Positions 11,952-41,606 of a stretch of DNA of 64,000 bases are shown here, piece after piece. Each line of letters opens with the position of its first letter. The stretch's first letter is position 1. This stretch comes from Terriglobia bacterium. Its GTDB lineage: Bacteria > Acidobacteriota > Terriglobia > JAJPHL01 > JAPKYU01. The translations under genes and the position numbers were made by a program. The notes under the pieces were generated by a model. It was not told the origin of the DNA. It did no database searches and worked only from the letters and a program-made list of their open reading frames with translations. The stretch is taken from NCBI GenBank assembly GCA_965223005.1, contig CBDCVK010000010.1, forward strand, positions 489,322-553,321, in the 5' to 3' direction.

Positions 11952-13453
11952 TTAGCAGCCCGTGTCTAAAATCGCCAGATGGGGAAGAAACATGTTACTT
12001 CGGAAATGTTCTTACTTACAATCGGGCCATGGCCATGGGAACGCGCAAGCATCGTCAGCGACAAGAGCCGCTGTGGTATCGGGCAGAGTTGGCCGAGGCG
12101 CCCGGACACCCGTTCTACCGGCGGCTGCACCAACTGTTGGAGGAAGCCGATTTTGATCGATTCTGCGAGAGTCGGTGCCGGCAGTTCTACCACGAGCGGC
12201 TGGGCCGACCGTCGTTGCCGCCGGGGATGTACTTCCGGTTGATGCTGATCGGCTTCTTCGAGGGGATCGACAGCGAGCGAGGCATCGCCTGGCGGGTGGC
12301 CGATTCCTTGAGTTTGCGGCAGTTTTTGCAGATTGGGCTGGATGAACAGACGCCGGATCATGTGACGATCTCGCGCACGCGGCGGCTGATGGACGAGCCG
12401 ACGCACCAGGAAGTGTTTGGATGGGTGCTGCGGCTGGTGGCCGAACGGGGCCTGCTGAAGGGCAAGACGATCGGCATTGACGCCACCACGCTGGAAGCCA
12501 ACGCGGCCATGAGGTCGATCATGCGGCGGGACAGCGGGGAAAGCTATACGGAGTACCTGAAGCGGTTGGCGGAGGCCGAAGGGATCGAAGCCCAGGATGC
12601 AGCGGCGCTGCGGAGGATGGACCGCTGCCGACCGAAGAAGATGTCCAATGCGAAGTGGGTGAACCCACATGATCGGGAAGCGGAGATCACCCGGATGAAG
12701 GACGGGCGCACGGCACTGGCTTACAAGGCCGAGCATGCGGTGGACATGGAGACTGGGGCGATTGTGGCGCTGACGGCGCACGGGGGAGCGACCGGCGACA
12801 CGGAATCGGTTCAGCAGACCCTGCCGGCGGCCGGCGCGGCGGTGGGCGAGCAGATCGCGACACCCACGGCCGAAGGGGAGTTTGTGGTGAACGCAGACGG
12901 GGTGGAAGAGGTGGTGGCCGACAAGGGGTATCACAGTGGGGAAGTGCTGGCAGAGATGCAGGCGATGGAGGTGCGGACCTACATTGCGGAGCCGGAGCGG
13001 GGACGGCGGCAATGGACGGGCAAGGAAGAGCAGAAGGCGGCGGTCTACCGCAATCGGCGGCGGGTGACGGGGCAGCGAGGGAAGGCGCTGCTGCGGAAAC
13101 GTGGGGAGATGCTGGAGCGTCCGTTTGCGCACATGTATGAGACGGGCAGGATGAGACGCTTGTATGTCCGTGGGAAGATAAACGTGCAAAAGAAACTGTT
13201 GCTGCAGGCAGCAGCCTGCAACCTGGCGCTAGTTTTGCGCCAGCTGCTGGGGGCGGGAACCCCGCGAGGCCTGCAAGACCGCATCACCGAGCTGTTTTTG
13301 CTCGTTTTCTGGATCACTGCCACAAGAATGGCCCACCCCGAATCCCCCACGCCCCTATCCTGGTGCAACGGTCAAATTCACGGCTTTGCTCTTCACTTGC
13401 CCCGCCTGAAAAAGAGGCCGGCCCAAAGGCCGGTTTAGACACGGGCTGTTAGC
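11951..13453 (+). mobile_element. IS1182/IS5-superfamily insertion sequence (about 1.5 kb) nested inside the IS256-family transposase gene
   Basis: Terminal inverted repeats GTTAGCAGCCCGTGTCTAAA (11951-11970) and TTTAGACACGGGCTGTTAGC (13434-13453), 18/20 matching. It encloses a 469-aa DDE transposase. Confidence 0.75.
12029..13438 (+). CDS. IS1182-family (IS5 superfamily) DDE transposase
   Basis: 469 aa. Motifs typical of IS1182 transposases: FYRRLHQLL, GIDATTLEANAA, DKGYHSGE, ERPFAHMYETGRMRRLYVRG...NVQKKLLLQAAACNL. Confidence 0.85.
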   Translation: MAMGTRKHRQRQEPLWYRAELAEAPGHPFYRRLHQLLEEADFDRFCESRCRQFYHERLGRPSLPPGMYFRLMLIGFFEGIDSERGIAWRVADSLSLRQFLQIGLDEQTPDHVTISRTRRLMDEPTHQEVFGWVLRLVAERGLLKGKTIGIDATTLEANAAMRSIMRRDSGESYTEYLKRLAEAEGIEAQDAAALRRMDRCRPKKMSNAKWVNPHDREAEITRMKDGRTALAYKAEHAVDMETGAIVALTAHGGATGDTESVQQTLPAAGAAVGEQIATPTAEGEFVVNADGVEEVVADKGYHSGEVLAEMQAMEVRTYIAEPERGRRQWTGKEEQKAAVYRNRRRVTGQRGKALLRKRGEMLERPFAHMYETGRMRRLYVRGKINVQKKLLLQAAACNLALVLRQLLGAGTPRGLQDRITELFLLVFWITATRMAHPESPTPLSWCNGQIHGFALHLPRLKKRPAQRPV

Positions 13454-14615
13454 CGTCGACGAGCTGATCGACGTGGTGGGTAGGGCGGCGATTGAAGCGG
13501 TGCTGGAGTTGTCGGCCGCGCAGGTGGCCGGTCCACGCCGTCAGGGCCGGCGGCGCCGTGGGGTAGGCTGGTATGGGCGCCAGCGGGGACGGGTGCGCCT
13601 GAAGGAGAGAAAGCTGGCCGTGCACAGGCCACGGCTCCGGCGGCCAGGCCGGGGAGCGGGGAAAGAAGTTCCCCTCCCGGCCTACGAAGCCATGCAGGAG
13701 GGCGAGGGTCTGGGGGCCCGGATGTTGGATATCTTGCTGCGGGGCGTCTCGACCCGGCAGTACCAGCGGGTGTTGCCGGAGATGGCGGACACCGTGGGTG
13801 TGTCGCGCTCCACGGTCAGCCGGGAAACGATGGAGGCTGCCGCAGCCGAGTTAGAACGTCTGTTGAACCGCCGCTTCGAGGAAGTAGAGTTGCTGATCCT
13901 CTACATCGACGGGATGGTGTTTGGCGACCATCACGTGATTGCGGCTGTGGGCGTGGATGCGGAAGGGCACAAGCACGTGCTGGGGATTCAGGAGGGGGCT
14001 ACGGAGAACGCCGCGGCCGTCCAGGACTTGCTGGAAGGTTTAGTGCGGCGAGGGGTGCAGCCGGCCCAGAAACGGCTGTTTGTGATCGACGGCTCGAAGG
14101 CCTTGCGGGCGGCGATCCGCGCCGTGTTCGGGGCCGAGCAGCCGGTGCAGCGCTGCCGCGCCCACAAGTTGCGCAACGTCCTGGACCGGTTGCCGGAGCC
14201 AGAGCGGGACCAGGTGCGGGCGGCGATGCGGGCCGCCTGGCGGTTGGATCCGAAGACCGGCAGGGCCAAGCTGGAGAAGTTGGCCCAATGGTTGGAGCGA
14301 GATTGTCCGGCCGCGGCGGCCAGCTTGCGGGAGGGTCTGGAGGAATGTTTCACCATCAACCGGCTGGGGCTTCCGGCTTCGCTGCATCGCTGTCTGGCCA
14401 CCACCAATCTCATCGAGAGTCCGCAGGCGGGAGTGAGGTTGCGAACTCGCCGGGTGTGCCGCTGGCGGGATGCGGCCATGGTCCAGCGCTGGGTCGCCTC
14501 CAGCTTCCTGGCCACGGAGAAAAACTTCCGCCGCCTGATGGGGTACCAGGACCTGTGGATGTTGAAAGCGATCCTCGAAGGATCAAAGTCGGCCACTCGA
14601 CGGGAGGTGGCGTAG
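13452..14615 (+). CDS. IS256-family (Mutator-like) transposase, main C-terminal portion; 5' end separated by the nested IS
   Basis: VDELIDVVGRAAIEAVLELSA..RRGVGWYGRQRGRVRLKERKLAVHRPRLR...LILYIDGMVF...QRCRAHKLRNVLDRLPE, typical of IS256/Mutator transposases. The frame is open from 13410; the ORF track starts it at 13473. Confidence 0.8.
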   Translation, partial: AVDELIDVVGRAAIEAVLELSAAQVAGPRRQGRRRRGVGWYGRQRGRVRLKERKLAVHRPRLRRPGRGAGKEVPLPAYEAMQEGEGLGARMLDILLRGVSTRQYQRVLPEMADTVGVSRSTVSRETMEAAAAELERLLNRRFEEVELLILYIDGMVFGDHHVIAAVGVDAEGHKHVLGIQEGATENAAAVQDLLEGLVRRGVQPAQKRLFVIDGSKALRAAIRAVFGAEQPVQRCRAHKLRNVLDRLPEPERDQVRAAMRAAWRLDPKTGRAKLEKLAQWLERDCPAAAASLREGLEECFTINRLGLPASLHRCLATTNLIESPQAGVRLRTRRVCRWRDAAMVQRWVASSFLATEKNFRRLMGYQDLWMLKAILEGSKSATRREVA

Positions 14616-28516: not shown

Positions 28517-28762
28517 GACGGCCTGAGCTTGATCATAGCGCACCTTGCTCACGCTCGGATAGCTTAAGTGGACTCCTCCGGAATTCAGGGCTAGCCGACC
28601 ATACTCCCGCGGTGGGTCGTCCCCGATCATCGCGCCGATGGCTGGTCACCTCGGGCGAACCCGCAAGGGCTCGCAGGCGGATGGGAAAGACTCTCGGCGC
28701 ACGGTTGCCCCCGCCCTCTGCGAATTTTGGCCATCAACGCTCTGTTTCCGTTGTATATCTAC

Positions 28763-28786
28763 TTGTCTATCTGGTTGTCTATCTGG
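28763..28786 (+). promoter_or_regulatory. Perfect tandem 12-mer TTGTCTATCTGG x2 immediately upstream of the nox-like start codon
   Basis: Read directly from the sequence. AT-richer patch 9 nt before ATG 28795. Confidence 0.3.
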
Positions 28787-28794
28787 CGGTTCGC

Positions 28795-30162
28795 ATGCTG
28801 GCTAACCGGTTGTTGGTAGTTGGAGGACAAGCTGCAGGACTGAGTGCGGCCAGCCGGGCGCGCCGGCTGGACTCGCGGCTGCATATCACCGTCTTGGAAC
28901 AAGGGCACCATATCTCCTACAGCGCCTGTGGCTTGGCCTATTTACTCAGCGGGCAGGTGCCGCGAGCCGAGGATCTGCTGGTGTACTCGGCCGAATTTTT
29001 TCGGGAGCAGCGCAACATCGAGGTGCTGGTTGGCATGCGGGTGGTTGAGATCGAGCCGGGACGGCGGAGGGTACGCGCCCTGGCCGTCGAGACCGGGCAA
29101 GAACACCTGTTCCCTTACGACCGGTTGGTTCTGGCCACGGGCACCCGGCCAGACTGGCCCGCCATCCCCGGCATGGATTCACCCGGCGTCTTCCAAGGGA
29201 ACAACCTGGCAGGGACGCTGGCCTTACAGGCCTTCCTGGAAACCGGCCAGCGGCCTCGTCGGGCCGTCGTCCTGGGCGGTGGCTATATTGGGCTGGAGTA
29301 CGCCGAGGCGTTGCGCCAGCGAGGTCTGCACGTTGTGGTGCTCCACTGCGGCAGCGAGCTATTGGAGGGATTCGATCCGGAAATCAACGAGCTGGTGGAA
29401 CAGAGGCTACTGCAACACGGCGTGGAAGTGTTTAAGGGCACTCCGGCTACCGCGATCCTGGGGCAGGGGCGCGTGCAGCGGGTGCTCTCTGCCGCCGGGC
29501 GGCACGAGGCGGACCTGGCGTTAGTGGCCACCGGCGTTGTGCCACGCTCCGAGGTGGCCATAGCCGCCGGCCTATCCACCGGGGTGAGGGGTGCAATCGT
29601 CGTGGATGAGCGGATGCAAACCAGCCTGCCCGGCGTCTATGCCGCCGGCGATTGTGCTCATACGATTCACCTGGTAACCGGGCGTCCTGTCTACATCCCG
29701 CTGGGCACGACCGCAAACAAACAGGGCCGCGTCGCGGGCGAGAATGCCGCCGGTGGCAACGCGCGCTTTGCAGGCATCGTAGGCACCACTGTCACCCGGG
29801 TGTTCGAATTGGAGTGCGGCCGCACTGGTTTGTCGGAATCCGAAGCGCGCGCCGGAGGCTTCCGCGTGGTCACCGCGGTCATCGAGCACGGGAGCCGCGC
29901 TCACTACTTTGGAGCCAAGCAGATGCGGGTGAAGCTGCTGGCCGACCGCGCCAATGGACGCCTCCTAGGGGGGCAGCTGCTGGGCGAGGAAGGGGTGGCC
30001 AAGCGGGTCGACGTGGTGGCCACGGCCCTGCATGCGCGTATGAATATTGAGCAACTGGCTGGCCTGGACTTGAGTTATGCGCCGCCTTTCGCCCCGGTTT
30101 GGGACCCGCTCCTGACTGCCGCAAATGCTCTGGGCCGGAAACTTCGTGACGGACGTGGCTGA
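28795..30162 (+). CDS. FAD-dependent pyridine nucleotide-disulfide oxidoreductase (NADH oxidase / CoA-disulfide reductase family)
   Basis: GGQAAGLSAA FAD motif, single redox Cys in ISYSACGLAY (CoADR/Nox Cys42-type), GGGYIGLE NAD motif. Confidence 0.8.
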   Translation: MLANRLLVVGGQAAGLSAASRARRLDSRLHITVLEQGHHISYSACGLAYLLSGQVPRAEDLLVYSAEFFREQRNIEVLVGMRVVEIEPGRRRVRALAVETGQEHLFPYDRLVLATGTRPDWPAIPGMDSPGVFQGNNLAGTLALQAFLETGQRPRRAVVLGGGYIGLEYAEALRQRGLHVVVLHCGSELLEGFDPEINELVEQRLLQHGVEVFKGTPATAILGQGRVQRVLSAAGRHEADLALVATGVVPRSEVAIAAGLSTGVRGAIVVDERMQTSLPGVYAAGDCAHTIHLVTGRPVYIPLGTTANKQGRVAGENAAGGNARFAGIVGTTVTRVFELECGRTGLSESEARAGGFRVVTAVIEHGSRAHYFGAKQMRVKLLADRANGRLLGGQLLGEEGVAKRVDVVATALHARMNIEQLAGLDLSYAPPFAPVWDPLLTAANALGRKLRDGRG

Positions 30163-30267
30163 CAGTGGCCTGCGTGGCTGGCAGTGGCCAGCTAGGATAA
30201 GCGCCGGCGCAAGTTGACACTTCATGTTCGGCAGGTTATATCCACACTGATAGGGAGGAAGCGGCGT

Positions 30268-30768
30268 ATGAGTGCTTTGGAGGCAGAGTCGCGGGCGGCG
30301 GACTTTCTTCTGCCGGGCCTGGACAACAAGACATATTCGTTGGCGGAATCGTTGAAAGAGGGGCCGGTGCTGGCCGCTTTCTTCAAGTCAAGCTGTCCGG
30401 TCTGCCAACTCACCTTTCCATTCCTGGAACGGTTTCAGCACCATTTCCGCGAAACCAAGGCGCACATCTGGGCTGTCAGCCAGGATGAGCCGGAGGAGGC
30501 GCTAACGTTCGCCACCGAATACGGGCTCAGCATGCCGGTGCTCCTGGAGAATGTAGAACACAACTATCCGGTATCAAATGCCTACGGCCTGACTCACGTC
30601 CCTACAGTCTTCCTGATCGGTCAGGCCGGTGACATCCTGCAGACCTCGGTCGGTTTCGTACGCAAAGAGCTGGTCCAGATGGGCCGTAGGCTGGAGATGC
30701 TCACCGGCAGAAAGGGTTTCGTGCCTTTCGGGGAACAGGACGAGGTCCCGGAATGGCAGTCCGGTTGA
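30268..30768 (+). CDS. Thioredoxin-like / redoxin-family thiol-disulfide oxidoreductase (CPVC active site)
   Basis: FKSSCPVCQLTFPF. Start taken at the internal Met MSALEAE of the 30214 ORF. Confidence 0.6.
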   Translation: MSALEAESRAADFLLPGLDNKTYSLAESLKEGPVLAAFFKSSCPVCQLTFPFLERFQHHFRETKAHIWAVSQDEPEEALTFATEYGLSMPVLLENVEHNYPVSNAYGLTHVPTVFLIGQAGDILQTSVGFVRKELVQMGRRLEMLTGRKGFVPFGEQDEVPEWQSG

Positions 30769-31090: not shown

Positions 31091-31185
31091 TGGCGGAAGG
31101 TTATGGGAATCGAACCCATCGCTGCTCGTGAGAAACAGCCACCGGCTTTGAAGGCCGGGCGAGTCACCAGACCCGATTACCTTCC
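31091..31185 (-). tRNA. selC: Selenocysteine tRNA (tRNA-Sec), anticodon UCA
   Basis: 95-nt minus-strand tRNA GGAAGGTAATCGGGTCTGGTGACTCGCCCGGCCTTCAAAGCCGGTGGCTGTTTCTCACGAGCAGCGATGGGTTCGATTCCCATAACCTTCCGCCA. It has an 8-bp acceptor stem, a 6-bp D-stem with 4-nt loop (CGGGTC/TGGT/GACTCG), a CUUCAAA anticodon loop, a long variable arm, a 5-bp T-stem with TTCGATT loop, G discriminator and encoded CCA. This is the bacterial tRNA-Sec 8/5 architecture, strongly similar to E. coli selC. Confidence 0.85.
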
Positions 31186-31229
31186 AGGCCCAGTATAGCT
31201 CGATATTCGAAGGCGGCAGGCGGCGGCCG

Positions 31230-33704
31230 TCAACGGGAGGCAGTCCGTTCCAGAGCCCGCTCGGTGTACCGATACACCAGGTGGTTGGTGCATACTTCGT
31301 AGTAGCGTCGCTGGGTGTACTCCTTCAAGCTGAAGGAGTGGGCATCCACAAAGGGAATCTGCGCTTCGCGCACCACCAGCCGCTGGAACACCTCGTTGGG
31401 CAAGGGGAAGGCACCACAGTGCAGCGTCACCTTTTCCGGCTGCCAGAGCAAGGGCATTTCCAGCTCGACCGGCTGGAGCGAAATCTCCTCTTGCAGTTTG
31501 TCAAACGCCTCCTCGCTCAGGCAAATCCCGGTGTTGTAGCGGACCAGGAACTCTTCCATGGCGCCTGCGGCGGCCTCTTCGGTGATGGTCTGGAACACGA
31601 ACGCCCGGAAGAGCGACTGCTTGCTGTCCAGCGCGCGGCGGGCCAGCTTGCTGCACCCGCTGAGCCGGTCGGCCAGGTTGATGGCCGAGGAGATCATGAT
31701 CCGGGTCTCGCCGTCCAGCAGGTACATGGGCGTCGAGTTCTGCCAGCAGATTCCGATGCCAATCTCCAGCCGCGGCAAGTCCGCCTTCTCGGCCCTCGCA
31801 TTGTATTGCTCGACCACGGCCATGATCTCCCGCGCCAAGCCACAGGCTCGGGCCACGGGATAACCGCCCAGCGCCGCACCTTGTTTCTCGAACATTGCCA
31901 GAATCACCGCGTCGCCCTCAATGAACACCTTCTCACCGGCGTACTTGGGCAGCAGCTTGTTCAGCGGTTCGTAAAAGTTCAGACTGAAGTGGCTGGCCGG
32001 ATTCAGGCCGCGGGCGAACAGGTCGGCGGTGAGCCGGGTGGAGTCACGCACGTCGGCTTTCAGAATCACGTGGCCTAGTATCTGTTCGCCCTGCGGCTTG
32101 TCCTCCGCCGGCAGCAGGAACTCGTACAGGGTGTTGTTGATTCGGGAAAGCTGCCGGGTTTTTTCCTCAAACAGCAGGTTGACCCGCTCCATCAGGCCTT
32201 GCAGGGCCTGTAGCAGGCAATTGTCGCGGTGGTGCCGCAGGAAATCGCGAACGAAGCGAACGAGAAAGGCGCGGAGGTCACGTGGTTGATAGGTACGCAC
32301 TCGAGCGGCGGCCTCTTCCAGAGTGGCTACGCTGGCCCGGGTCAGCTTGTAATGCGTGATCAGGTCGGCCACCTTCTTGAGTTCGGAAGGGTCCAGGAGG
32401 GCGCGTTTCAGTTGCTGCGGATGGATCGGCGGGCAGTAGTCCTGGTAGACGTTCGCCGTCTCGTAGGCGGCGGCGAAGCAGGGCAATAGCCCCAACTGCT
32501 GCGCTGCGTTATAAAATTCATCAACTAGCTGGCGCTGGATCTCTAGCCTTTCCTTCAGGGCGCTCAGTTCTTTCCGCGGTGCCTTTCGCGACTGCGCCTC
32601 AGCCAGCAGTTGCTCGGTGCGCACAGTACCGAGCAGCTGCTCCACATTTTCGGGGACGTTGAGCATCTCCGTCAGGTGCGCGTCATAGGCTTCCGTCGAC
32701 AGCCGCAGTTGTTCGGCCGACTGCCTCAGTTGTCTCTCCGGCTCCTCTAGGCGCCCCGCAAGATCGGGAGAGGCCGGAGACGGGGTCTCGGGGCGGGGAC
32801 CGAAGAGGCGTCCCAATCCCAATCCCAGCCCGCGCTCGGGAGGCTGGAGCTGGTCGCGCAAAGATGAGGTCCGGCTGGCCAATTGGTGATGCTCCTGCTG
32901 ACGGGTCTCCAGCTCACGCGCCTCCGGTCCGACTGCGTCCACCCCCTTGAGCATGGACTTCAGCCAGCGCTCCACGGATTCGTACAGGTCCGGGTCGCGG
33001 TGGAAGTTGCCCAACATGACGTACTTGGTTAGCTGAATGTAATCGTCACGGCCGGTTTCGGTGAACACCAGCGGGTGAGAAAAGTAAGTGAACCAGGGAC
33101 TGGCTTCGTCGCCGAAAAAGGATTCGCGCGTCTTGCGGACCACACCAGCCTGCACTTCGTTAGCCAGCGACAGTAATTCATTCGAAACGCGTCGGAAGAC
33201 GTTCTTCTTGTCGGCCTGAAACTCGCTGAAGATTTCCTTCAGTTGGAAGGCGCGCAAGTTCCGATCGTGGCGCGGCCCTTCATACATCCGCAGCTTGTTC
33301 TTGCCCTCCATCTGGATGCGGCCGTACTGTTGCTGCACTTCCCAGCTCAGGTACTTGAAGAGGGCGACGTTTCCCAATAGGTCGATGTCGGGGTTGCGCG
33401 CCTCCTTGGCGTGGCTGAGCGCACTGAGCAGTACCTCCTGCAACAGACGCTTGAATTCGTTGCGCTCCTGCGGCTTGGGCGGGCCCGGGTTCTGCTCCGC
33501 CAGTTCAGGCGCGCGGCTGTGCTTCATAAAGAGCTTGAGAATGTAGCCCCCGGTGAAGCCGATGAAGCGGGAGCTCAGGTGGACGTCGTGGCGGACGTTG
33601 TCCACGCCCGGCACTAGCGATGGAAAGCGCAGGTCCGGTGCGGACCCGACGAGGTGAACCGCTGCATATACGCGTTCCGGGCTGGAACGGGAGAACAGCG
33701 GCAT
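31230..33704 (-). CDS. Large cytoplasmic protein with a C-terminal class III adenylate/guanylate cyclase-like catalytic domain and an uncharacterised ~580-aa N-terminal region
   Basis: C-terminal ILKADVRDSTRL...EGDAVILAMF...LEIGIGI...ISSAINLADRL follows the CHD cyclase pattern (FADIxGFT...GDA...IGI..G.......G..VNLAARL). The N-terminus is not recognised. Confidence 0.6.
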   Translation of the reverse strand: MPLFSRSSPERVYAAVHLVGSAPDLRFPSLVPGVDNVRHDVHLSSRFIGFTGGYILKLFMKHSRAPELAEQNPGPPKPQERNEFKRLLQEVLLSALSHAKEARNPDIDLLGNVALFKYLSWEVQQQYGRIQMEGKNKLRMYEGPRHDRNLRAFQLKEIFSEFQADKKNVFRRVSNELLSLANEVQAGVVRKTRESFFGDEASPWFTYFSHPLVFTETGRDDYIQLTKYVMLGNFHRDPDLYESVERWLKSMLKGVDAVGPEARELETRQQEHHQLASRTSSLRDQLQPPERGLGLGLGRLFGPRPETPSPASPDLAGRLEEPERQLRQSAEQLRLSTEAYDAHLTEMLNVPENVEQLLGTVRTEQLLAEAQSRKAPRKELSALKERLEIQRQLVDEFYNAAQQLGLLPCFAAAYETANVYQDYCPPIHPQQLKRALLDPSELKKVADLITHYKLTRASVATLEEAAARVRTYQPRDLRAFLVRFVRDFLRHHRDNCLLQALQGLMERVNLLFEEKTRQLSRINNTLYEFLLPAEDKPQGEQILGHVILKADVRDSTRLTADLFARGLNPASHFSLNFYEPLNKLLPKYAGEKVFIEGDAVILAMFEKQGAALGGYPVARACGLAREIMAVVEQYNARAEKADLPRLEIGIGICWQNSTPMYLLDGETRIMISSAINLADRLSGCSKLARRALDSKQSLFRAFVFQTITEEAAAGAMEEFLVRYNTGICLSEEAFDKLQEEISLQPVELEMPLLWQPEKVTLHCGAFPLPNEVFQRLVVREAQIPFVDAHSFSLKEYTQRRYYEVCTNHLVYRYTERALERTASR

Positions 33705-34460: not shown

Positions 34461-35006
34461 TCATCCCCCGGCAGACAGACGACTGCAAACCGCATAGGCG
34501 CCGTTGGGGTCAATCGCGCTCCCGCCTTTCTCGATGTGGCGAATGATCCCCTGCTTATCCACCACGAAGGTGACCCGCAGAGCGAAGTTGCGCTCGGGAT
34601 CCAGAATCCCGTATTTCTTGCTGACCTCGCGCATGAAGTCGCTCAGAAGCGGAAACTTCACCCCGAGGTCTTCGGCGTAACGACGATTGGCGTAAGAGCT
34701 ATCCACGCTGATGCCCAGCACCTGCGAGCCGGTCTTTTCGAATTTGGCGATATCATCCTGATACGCCTTCAGTTCCTTCGTTCAACCACCCGTGAATGCC
34801 AGGACGTAGAAGGCCAGTACCACATTCTTCTTCCCCTTGAAATCGCTCAACCGGACCGGCTTGTTGTTCTGATCCGGAAGCGTGAAATCGGGCGCGGAAT
34901 CGCCTACTTTCAGATGGGTCATGACGTCGGGTGGCGGCTGAGCCGGGGCCAGACTGAGTGGCGCGGGCAGAATCAAAGCCAGTGCCAAAGCTGTTCGACA
35001 AACCAT
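34461..35006 (-). CDS. Exported PrxQ/Bcp-type peroxiredoxin with an in-frame UGA (34782-34784) at the peroxidatic Cys position: predicted selenocysteine-containing peroxiredoxin
   Basis: ORFs 34782-35183 and 34461-34721 are in the same frame, separated only by TGA. Read through, the sequence is ...VVLAFYVLAFTGG-U-TKELKAYQDDIAKFEKTGSQVLGISVDS..., matching the Prx motif FYP.DFTPGCTxE with Sec replacing Cys. Signal peptide MVCRTALALALILPAPLSLAPAQ. A SECIS-like hairpin follows the UGA, and selC lies 3.3 kb away. Confidence 0.7.
34746..34767 (-). promoter_or_regulatory. SECIS-like hairpin in the mRNA 15 nt downstream of the in-frame UGA
   Basis: mRNA: UGA acgaaggaacugaa GGCGUAUC AGGAU GAUAUCGCC. 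This is a GC-clamped stem with one bulged U and an apical loop containing GG/U. Spacing and shape are like bacterial SECIS elements. Confidence 0.45.
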
Positions 35007-39834: not shown

Positions 39835-40584
39835 TCATCGAGCGAGCTTCCGGTAGTCCTCGGCGACGATATCAACCAGGCGGCACATTTCTTGCAGCCG
39901 GGACGTCACTCGCGCTCCCAGGCGCTCTTCGAAGGTTGCATACGTGCGGCGCTTTCCAGGCACGCCGCTCACGGGGTCTTCCTTCAGATTGGCGGTGAGC
40001 AGCGTGGGCTTCTTCTCGTTGTAGCGGTGATTGAGGAGGTAGTTAATGGTGTCTTCCACCCAGTCGGAAACGCGGTTGGCTCCCAGATCGTCAATCACCA
40101 CCACTTCGGTCTCCAGTACCGGCCGCATCACCTCACGCTCGGCGGTCAGCGCCTTCGGGTTGTAGCTGGACTGGATGCGCTTCAGCAGTTCCTGGTAGTC
40201 CAGGAACAGGACTTCGGCGCCCTTCTCGACGAGGCCTTTCAGCAGAGCCACCGTCAGGTGGGTCTTGCCGACGCCGGTCTCGCCCATCAGTAGCAGGCCC
40301 TTGCCGTCCACCAGCGGGTAGTCGGCCAGGTACTGATCCACGACGCCTAAAGCTTTCCACAGCGACTCGTTGCGCGGGCCGCCCCGCGGCGGGTACAGCT
40401 CGAAATTGGTGAAGGCGCAGGCCTGGTACCGCGGCGGAATCCGCGCCGCAGCCAGTGCGCGCTCCAGGCGGGTCTGGGTGCGGCACTCGCAGGGCACCAC
40501 GGCGTCGCCGGTTCCGCTGGAGCGCCAGCCAGTGCCCGAGCACAGCGGGCACGCCACAGATGCGTCACTGATCGGCGAGGCCAT
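39835..40584 (-). CDS. DnaC/DnaI-like AAA+ ATPase with an N-terminal Cys4 zinc-binding motif (helicase-loader family)
   Basis: CPLCSGTGW...CECR zinc motif. Walker A GETGVGKTHL, Walker B VVVIDDLG. Confidence 0.65.
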   Translation of the reverse strand: MASPISDASVACPLCSGTGWRSSGTGDAVVPCECRTQTRLERALAAARIPPRYQACAFTNFELYPPRGGPRNESLWKALGVVDQYLADYPLVDGKGLLLMGETGVGKTHLTVALLKGLVEKGAEVLFLDYQELLKRIQSSYNPKALTAEREVMRPVLETEVVVIDDLGANRVSDWVEDTINYLLNHRYNEKKPTLLTANLKEDPVSGVPGKRRTYATFEERLGARVTSRLQEMCRLVDIVAEDYRKLAR

Positions 40585-40739
40585 GGCATCCAGTCCAAGC
40601 TATCCCGACACCGGGCAAATTCCGGTCCCTACAATATCGCCTTGAACGCCATGGGTCAAAGAATGCCGAGTGTCTCCTACACAGGCGCCGGAGACGCTCG
40701 TAAACACGGTGGTAGTGGCCGGGCTTTAGCTGCTCCAAT

Positions 40740-41606
40740 TCACGGCTTTGTCTTATGAGCGCTAAGCAGAAATCCAGACACGATTCCAATGAGCTGGATT
40801 GCTGCTCGCGCTTCTACATCTGAAACGGTCGGCAGCCAAGGTCTTCCGTGTCCAGTACCCTCCTTGTTTCTGAGAGCGTTCACAGCACAACCAGTCTCGT
40901 ATAGAGCCCGCGCCAGTCGACGCTGTGGCGGTTCGGTTTGCTGTGGTGCGGTAAGTGGAGTTGCGAGCTCTAATGCTGTGAACGCCTGACCGAGCAGTGT
41001 GGGGAAGTTGGCTTGTTGAGGATACTGTCCGTAGCGTTCATAGATCACGTGAGCCGCTGTGGCCTCCAACAGGTCTTTGCCCGCGCCCACCAAGAGCGCG
41101 GCATCCTGACTTCCTCGTCGGGCACGCCGAACATACGCCTCTAGGGCGCTTGTTAACTGCACACCAGTGAGCGTGTCGATACTAGTGGGTTGGAGCTCTC
41201 CTTCCGCCGTGAGCACATACCCTTCACCGCGGAATGCGTCCGCAGCATCTGTGATTGCGTCTTCCCTGACAAAGTTGGGAGACCCGCGGCGGAATCCACC
41301 CTTTCCCCGAATCAGCGCAACCAGTGCAGCTAGGAAGACCTCTCCGCTTTCGGGAGCATTATCCAACGCCCAGCTCAACACTGCTCGAACTCTCTTCGCC
41401 TTACCGACGATTTGCCCCTGCAATTTGGGATCGCCTGCGCCCAGATCTGCGCGAGTAATCCGGAACTCGATGTCGGAATGGCTTGGCTCGCGCGTTTCTG
41501 TCTGCGCGTCGTCTACAAGGCGAGCGACCGCGGTTATGATGGCGTCACTGAGCGGCGCGTGCGGTCGTTTTTCTCGTTGATTCGTTGTCACACTTGACCA
41601 CCCCAC
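40740..41606 (-). CDS. Abortive-infection-like protein with a C-terminal Abi_C/HEPN domain (AbiJ-like architecture)
   Basis: C-terminal ...ALYETGCAVNALRNKEGTGHGRPW... carries the HEPN Rx4-6H motif (R-NKEGTG-H), in the context typical of the Abi_C family (RN..GtGHG). The N-terminal ~180 aa are unassigned. Confidence 0.5.
   Translation of the reverse strand: MGWSSVTTNQREKRPHAPLSDAIITAVARLVDDAQTETREPSHSDIEFRITRADLGAGDPKLQGQIVGKAKRVRAVLSWALDNAPESGEVFLAALVALIRGKGGFRRGSPNFVREDAITDAADAFRGEGYVLTAEGELQPTSIDTLTGVQLTSALEAYVRRARRGSQDAALLVGAGKDLLEATAAHVIYERYGQYPQQANFPTLLGQAFTALELATPLTAPQQTEPPQRRLARALYETGCAVNALRNKEGTGHGRPWLPTVSDVEARAAIQLIGIVSGFLLSAHKTKP

Follow-up and report, generated by a model that had tools for sequence, protein, structure and literature searches.

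The 95 nt at positions 31091-31185 on the minus strand of the window (the whole 64-kb stretch of DNA analysed here) almost certainly constitute a functional selC gene, encoding the tRNA-Sec with anticodon UCA of an uncultured Bryobacteraceae-like acidobacterium. The gene is of the standard bacterial tRNA-Sec kind, and what is new is its host lineage. The find is correct but ordinary; a routine tRNA scan would report selC.

Detection and structure of the tRNA

A sequence-only reading had proposed a 95-nt tRNA-Sec gene on the minus strand at this place and had named beforehand a tRNA finder and a covariance model as the check; both independent detectors, ARAGORN and the Rfam model RF01852, return the Sec isotype there, which bears the proposal out. 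ARAGORN reports a sole tRNA in the 64-kb window, a tRNA-SeC with anticodon tca at 31091-31185 (minus strand). RF01852 (tRNA-Sec) matches 31095-31185 on the same strand with 78.5 bits (E 1.8e-14) against a gathering threshold of 47, outscores the general tRNA model within its Rfam clan, and is the lone gathering-level RNA match in the window in a scan of 4227 Rfam families that was repeated with lax filters. The cloverleaf is both the minimum free energy (MFE) and the centroid structure of the 95 nt, at -41.6 kcal/mol (z = -3.5), and none of 200 shuffled sequences folds as well. The gene and its parts are as follows:

31091..31185, minus strand: tRNA-Sec (selC), 95 nt, anticodon UCA, G73, encoded CCA; supported by ARAGORN, Rfam, the fold and compensatory changes
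Acceptor 5' strand: GGAAGGUA, from the reading of the sequence and the fold
Acceptor 3' strand: AACCUUCC, 8 residues, from the reading of the sequence
Linker: AU
D arm: CGGGUC/GACUCG, 6 pairs including one G·U, with the 4-nt loop UGGU
Anticodon arm: CCGGC/GCCGG, preceded by C·U, with the 7-nt loop CUUCAAA including U33
Variable arm: 21 nt, including a 7-bp stem that closes a loop of 5 nt
T arm: AUGGG/CCCAU, 5 pairs, with the loop UUCGAUU
3' end: G73 (position 92), then the encoded CCA

Most of this anatomy had been described by the sequence-only reading and stands as described: the D stem and its loop are read and folded, the anticodon loop is read and agreed upon by the detectors, the long variable arm is present in the fold, and the T stem with its TTCGATT loop (as DNA), G73 and the encoded CCA are read in the sequence. 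The claim of an 8-bp acceptor stem survives in part. The 8/5 spacing holds, because eight residues separate the T stem from G73, but the acceptor GGAAGGTA/AACCTTCC consists of 7 Watson-Crick pairs plus an A8·A84 mismatch (window positions 31178 and 31102, tRNA positions 8 and 84), not of 8 pairs; likewise, the anticodon stem consists of 5 pairs plus the C·U. A 13-layer acceptor and T helix in the 8/5 arrangement is a criterion for bacterial tRNA-Sec (PMC5330540), and the window tRNA has it with A·A as the 8th layer, together with the UCA loop, the 6-bp/4-nt D arm, the long variable arm, G73, a covariance-model score above threshold and the Sec call of the tRNA finder.

The mismatched pairs in a wider sample and in close relatives

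The two non-canonical pairs can be placed against a panel of 119 tRNA-Sec loci from many phyla, which were fetched by a pattern that leaves the acceptor stem free and were then parsed by structure. The innermost acceptor pair is not Watson-Crick in 24 of the 118 other bacterial tRNA-Sec (about 20%, in a panel that is not phylogenetically independent), and the types found are G·G, C·A, G·A, U·C and C·U, with most of the G·G cases coming from Planctomycetota. Both other Acidobacteriota in the panel belong to this group (L064 with C·A, L090 with C·U). C·U at the first anticodon-stem position is present in 49/119 panel sequences (41%), and G73 in 112/119. Because the same two positions are so often non-canonical elsewhere, the A·A and C·U irregularities can be taken, on the panel, as ordinary variation in the tRNA-Sec family.

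A comparison at shorter range leads further. In one close relative, locus L123, the tRNA is identical and the order of the genes unchanged, and the DNA of L123 differs from that of the window at about 2% of positions in the 581 nt aligned around selC; since the tRNA is identical despite this difference in the flanks, the gene is not an assembly error. A lineage series (loci L132-L135) was chosen via homologues of the neighbouring 824-aa ORF at 85, 76, 67 and 54% identity. The tRNA of L132, whose neighbouring ORF is 85% identical at the protein level, is again identical to that of the window. Among the clade tRNAs, both strands of a pair have changed in four helices: the acceptor, where U7-A becomes C7-G, the anticodon stem, the variable stem and the T stem. 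In the clade alignment, 97% of the cells that should pair do so, versus 28-59% when the partners are slid; the D stem is paired in 100% of cells, and the unpaired cells are confined to the 8th acceptor position, which reads:

Window, L123, L132: A·A
L133, L134: G·G
L135: A-U, giving a full 8 bp

The alignment indicates that the structure of selC is under selection, and that the mismatch at the 8th position is a clade trait and not damage. The close clade retains a purine·purine combination at the innermost acceptor position, and G·G is common there in Planctomycetota tRNA-Sec.

The series also bears on the most durable of the alternative explanations, namely that the window tRNA is a 12-bp (7/5) tRNA-Sec of the Cloacimonetes type, with A8 lying in a 3-nt linker outside the helix. 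The MFE structure contains 7 Watson-Crick acceptor pairs alone, as such a molecule would have. [quoted passage not shown] Furthermore, L135 forms A-U at the same two positions, and the purines kept at both positions elsewhere in the clade, A·A or G·G, fit a stacked mismatch within a 13-layer helix. We therefore regard a 7/5 molecule as quite improbable and read the tRNA as an 8/5 tRNA-Sec.

Two further observations on relatives may be added here. A pattern scan of metagenomes for close relatives of the tRNA gave 3 loci, among them L124, whose tRNA (76% identity to that of the window) has a GGGAG-type acceptor as in Planctomycetota sequences. One metagenome-assembled genome, GCA_040961615.1, contains two copies of the 824-aa ORF, each with its own tRNA-Sec after it: these are L133 (JBFONE010000132.1) and L135 (JBFONE010000384.1), one tRNA being 95 nt long with G·G and the other 100 nt with A-U. 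Either this genome has two selC genes, which would be unusual in bacteria, or it is a mixed bin.

Genomic neighbourhood

The tRNA gene lies downstream of a large open reading frame on the same strand and is separated from it by a short interval:

31230..33704, minus strand: uncharacterised conserved ORF of 824 aa; its stop codon precedes the tRNA, which has the same orientation, by 44 nt
31192..31197, minus strand: TATACT, candidate -10 element, 6 nt upstream of G1; supported by its invariance in relatives

The 824-aa ORF has no match in Pfam, NCBIfam or PDB, and no domain was recognised in any member of its family, which comprises at least 723 homologues; every one of these whose organism is named belongs to Acidobacteriota. 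In a few JGI records, family members are called "class 3 adenylate cyclase", a label that no domain match backs. A formate dehydrogenase was considered for this adjacent upstream ORF and rejected, the ORF being without a known domain. A tRNA-Sec follows the 824-aa ORF in 5/5 related loci at 54% identity or more (L123, L132-L135), lying 28-92 nt downstream of the homologue on the same strand in L132-L135, but it is adjacent to none of the homologues at 46-47% identity (0/3 loci). Since the pairing is lost at this distance, we take it as synteny within the clade, which does not prove that the two genes are functionally linked.

The sequence-only reading had also pointed to spurious ORFs called across selC. 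Such ORFs are present, but they are merely 27-40 aa long, and none of 60 aa or more crosses the gene. A genomic island at selC was considered and rejected, as the 3' end of the tRNA has no second copy and the downstream genes are conserved in relatives. When all ORFs of at least 320 aa were compared with Pfam and/or NCBIfam, selA, selB and selD were not found in the 64-kb window; presumably, they are located elsewhere on the chromosome. The neighbouring proteins of the window gave nothing in tblastn against 119 tRNA-Sec loci of other phyla.

On the other side of the tRNA and convergent to it, two genes lie at 28612-30768 (plus strand). The first encodes a Pyr_redox_2 oxidoreductase with a single SxxxCG-type Cys and, by eye, a likeness to CoA-disulfide reductase/NADH oxidase; the second encodes an AhpC/TSA protein of the thioredoxin fold that has a CPVC motif. 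The two are kept in relatives (L132:7868-9824, L135:7816-9802) and form, together with the selenocysteine-containing peroxiredoxin described below, a small redox neighbourhood. Elsewhere in the window there are mobile-element genes at 12029-14615 (plus strand) and 39835-41606 (minus strand), encoding IS1182/IS5-like and IS256-family transposases, and the transposase stretch has raised GC (0.64) and a positive GC skew. In these mobile-element regions, an IstB/DnaC-like ATPase adjoins a protein with an Abi_C (abortive infection C-terminus) domain. The window also encodes a protein with the TIGR03436 "acidobact_VWFA" domain, which, like those homologues that carry names, indicates a source in Acidobacteriota near Bryobacteraceae.

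A conserved hexamer upstream of the tRNA

The hexamer TATACT is invariant in the window and in the whole lineage series, where it stands 6 nt before G1 (7 nt in L133):

L132:7509-7514, plus strand: TATACT
L133:7558-7563, plus strand: TATACT
L134:7543-7548, plus strand: TATACT
L135:7474-7479, plus strand: TATACT

Apart from TATACT, the flanks of L133-L135 are unalignable, and the hexamer occurs 4 times in the window (both strands, 128 kb). It belongs to the tRNA, because its distance to the tRNA is fixed and that to the upstream stop varies from 28 to 92 nt. No conserved -35 partner was found in the aligned clade loci, a scan with the strict sigma-70 consensus flagged no promoter at the tRNA, and there is no enrichment of TATACT at the 6-7 nt offset in 116 tRNA-Sec loci of other phyla. 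The conservation and position of the hexamer suggest that it may serve as a -10 box, with transcription predicted to begin at the mature 5' end or right beside it, which would give a leaderless tRNA-Sec.

A peroxiredoxin with an in-frame UGA

The sequence-only reading had called a selenoprotein 3.3 kb away and had taken the tRNA as support for it. The call is upheld by a peroxiredoxin gene whose in-frame TGA falls in the column where 74 homologues have the catalytic Cys, and whose 3' end lies 3.3 kb from the tRNA:

34461..35006, minus strand: peroxiredoxin-type selenoprotein, 181 codons, predicted signal peptide, Sec at codon 75; from the translation and homologues
34782..34784, minus strand: in-frame UGA (Sec codon) in place of the peroxidatic Cys; from the translation and the homologue alignment
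34746..34767, minus strand: SECIS-like hairpin GGCGUAUCA-GGA-UGAUAUCGCC, 22 nt, starting 14 nt after the UGA

The protein has the motif FTGG-U-TKE, versus FTGGCTKE in 69 homologues, and its profile matches are of the AhpC/BCP/PrxU type. Among the best 120 homologues, the column of the TGA holds Cys in 74 and "W" in 45, and the "W" homologues, most of which are on contigs of about 1 kb, are closer to the peroxiredoxin of the window than the Cys ones. The DNA was read for two of the 45 "W" homologues (P0026 and P0032, loci L127 and L128), and in both the codon is TGA; the "W" in L127 and L128 is a TGA read as Trp by the gene caller. The same TGA is found in L123, L132 and L133, where public calls split the gene in two.

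Public gene calls handle this selenoprotein wrongly in two ways: in 45 homologues the Sec codon appears as Trp (a code 4 reading, with the DNA verified for two), and assemblies with long contigs break the gene into pieces of 74 aa and about 102 aa (L123:5767-6312, L132:4023-4565). The conserved proline of the PxxxTxxC motif is replaced by Val or Ile in 45/45 of the "W" forms (taken as Sec; FYVLAFTGGU) and kept in 71/74 Cys forms (FYPAAFTGGC), such that the active-site context appears to co-vary with the use of Sec in the aligned peroxiredoxins.

Downstream of the UGA, the SECIS-like hairpin, with a single bulged U and a 3-nt loop rich in G, takes the same fold in the window as in L123, L127 and L128, and one of its pairs shows a compensatory change of G-C to A-U. 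Since the region is coding, this covariation is modest evidence, supportive but not decisive. The fold of the 101 nt around the UGA is not significant (z = -0.96), and the conservation is limited to the local hairpin. A scan of the window for other ORFs interrupted by TGA gave 144 candidates, nearly all of them GC-rich noise.

Among the selenoprotein families already known from bacteria are peroxiredoxins with a T/SxxU/C active site, and the use of selenoproteins is likewise known for Acidobacteria (PMC1794560). The window protein resembles the Sec-peroxiredoxins of that work and of the PrxU model NF040737 in having TxxU (T-G-G-U) at the peroxidatic position and in having Cys homologues. It is not a PrxU equivalog, because it reaches 76 bits with NF040737 against a cut-off of 270 and its best match is a BCP-type thiol peroxidase. 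The mutual support of the tRNA and the peroxiredoxin selenoprotein is sound.

A functional gene or something else?

Two further explanations call the function or the identity of the tRNA into question. The first holds that it is a decaying, non-functional pseudogene that has lost pairing at the 8th acceptor position (A·A) and at the first position of the anticodon stem (C·U). Two non-canonical pairs are indeed present, and the genes of the Sec machinery were not among the window's ORFs of 320 aa or more. The A·A at the innermost acceptor pair may also matter for function, acceptor length being the SelB/EF-Tu determinant in E. coli (PMC7609411). Against a pseudogene, 20% and 41% of other bacterial tRNA-Sec have no canonical pair at these two positions, the changes within the clade are compensatory and do not look like decay, the upstream hexamer is invariant, and the window and four relatives all have an intact peroxiredoxin with its UGA. 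A pseudogene is thus extremely improbable, and the gene is best regarded as functional.

We attach equally little credence to the second, that this is a tRNA-Sec look-alike through which UGA would be read as Cys or Ser, be it a selC*-type tRNA-Cys, an allo-tRNA or a tRNA-Ser acting as an opal suppressor. Identity does not follow from the anticodon by itself, but selC* tRNA-Cys carry U73, whereas the window tRNA combines G1:C72 and G73 with a 5-bp T stem and the 6-bp/4-nt D arm, the Sec model beats the general one within the Rfam clan, and no cysS*- or selB*-like gene adjoins selC. Look-alikes with a UCA anticodon exist in Deltaproteobacteria, yet the selC* tRNA-Cys are discussed with an 8/4 form, and with A1:U72 in Desulfobacterales (PMC7609411); the features that set such molecules apart, an 8/4 or 9/3 helix, a discriminator other than G73 or A1:U72, are absent from the window tRNA.

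Comparison with known tRNA-Sec genes

The sequence-only reading had stressed a close likeness to E. coli selC, which holds for the architecture and does not hold for the sequence. Like E. coli selC (b3658), the window tRNA is 95 nt long and aligns without gaps, with 8-nt acceptor strands, a 2-nt linker, a 6-bp/4-nt D arm, the loop CUUCAAA, a long variable arm, a 5-bp T stem, G73 and an encoded CCA, and the shared GGAAG start and CUUCCGCCA end that had been noted are seen in the alignment. The identity to the K-12 gene is 60/95, and blastn of the window tRNA against 5,426 E. coli genomes gave no match. Also, E. coli selC has C8-G at the innermost acceptor pair, whereas the window tRNA has A·A. 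Departures from a perfect 8-bp acceptor stem are known from the bulged tRNA-Sec of Epsilonproteobacteria and the 7/5 type of Cloacimonetes (PMC5330540); in contrast to both, the window tRNA keeps 8 residues per strand and has an internal purine·purine mismatch.

Transcription would proceed from the conserved TATACT box and, if the gene works as in the established bacterial pathway, SerRS would charge the tRNA with serine, with G73 and the long variable arm as identity elements. SelA would then convert the seryl form to Sec-tRNA with selenophosphate from SelD, and SelB would bring the Sec-tRNA to UGA codons that have a SECIS hairpin after them. At least one client gene would be at hand 3.3-3.6 kb upstream on the same strand, namely the predicted secreted peroxiredoxin in which Sec would take the place of the peroxidatic Cys.

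Implications

A more specific proposal can be built on the hexamer and the mismatch, i.e., that in the Bryobacteraceae-like clade selC is leaderless, with a start at G1 directed by TATACT, and that the purine·purine mismatch acts as a determinant for SelB or an antideterminant for EF-Tu. We put this forward tentatively, with the balance of probability somewhat against it. Eukaryotic tRNA-Sec genes are transcribed from the first mature nucleotide; a leaderless selC, if true, would parallel them in starting at about G1 (a predicted start, should TATACT be a -10 element), though with another polymerase and promoter type. In E. coli, a non-canonical RNase P cut takes a leader of about 24 nt off the pre-tRNA-Sec (PMC5499578), whereas in the window the conserved TATACT stands 6 nt before G1, and a leaderless transcript would, if true, bypass the unusual cleavage that E. 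coli needs for its 8-layer acceptor stem. 

What the gene establishes is that an uncultured soil-type acidobacterium has the tRNA required for decoding UGA as selenocysteine. It also validates as a selenoprotein the nearby peroxiredoxin, which is split or mistranslated with Trp in public gene calls. Its value lies in correct annotation, not in discovery. The mismatch of the clade, the candidate promoter box abutting the mature 5' end and the 824-aa partner are small leads that may inform the identity and processing of tRNA-Sec.
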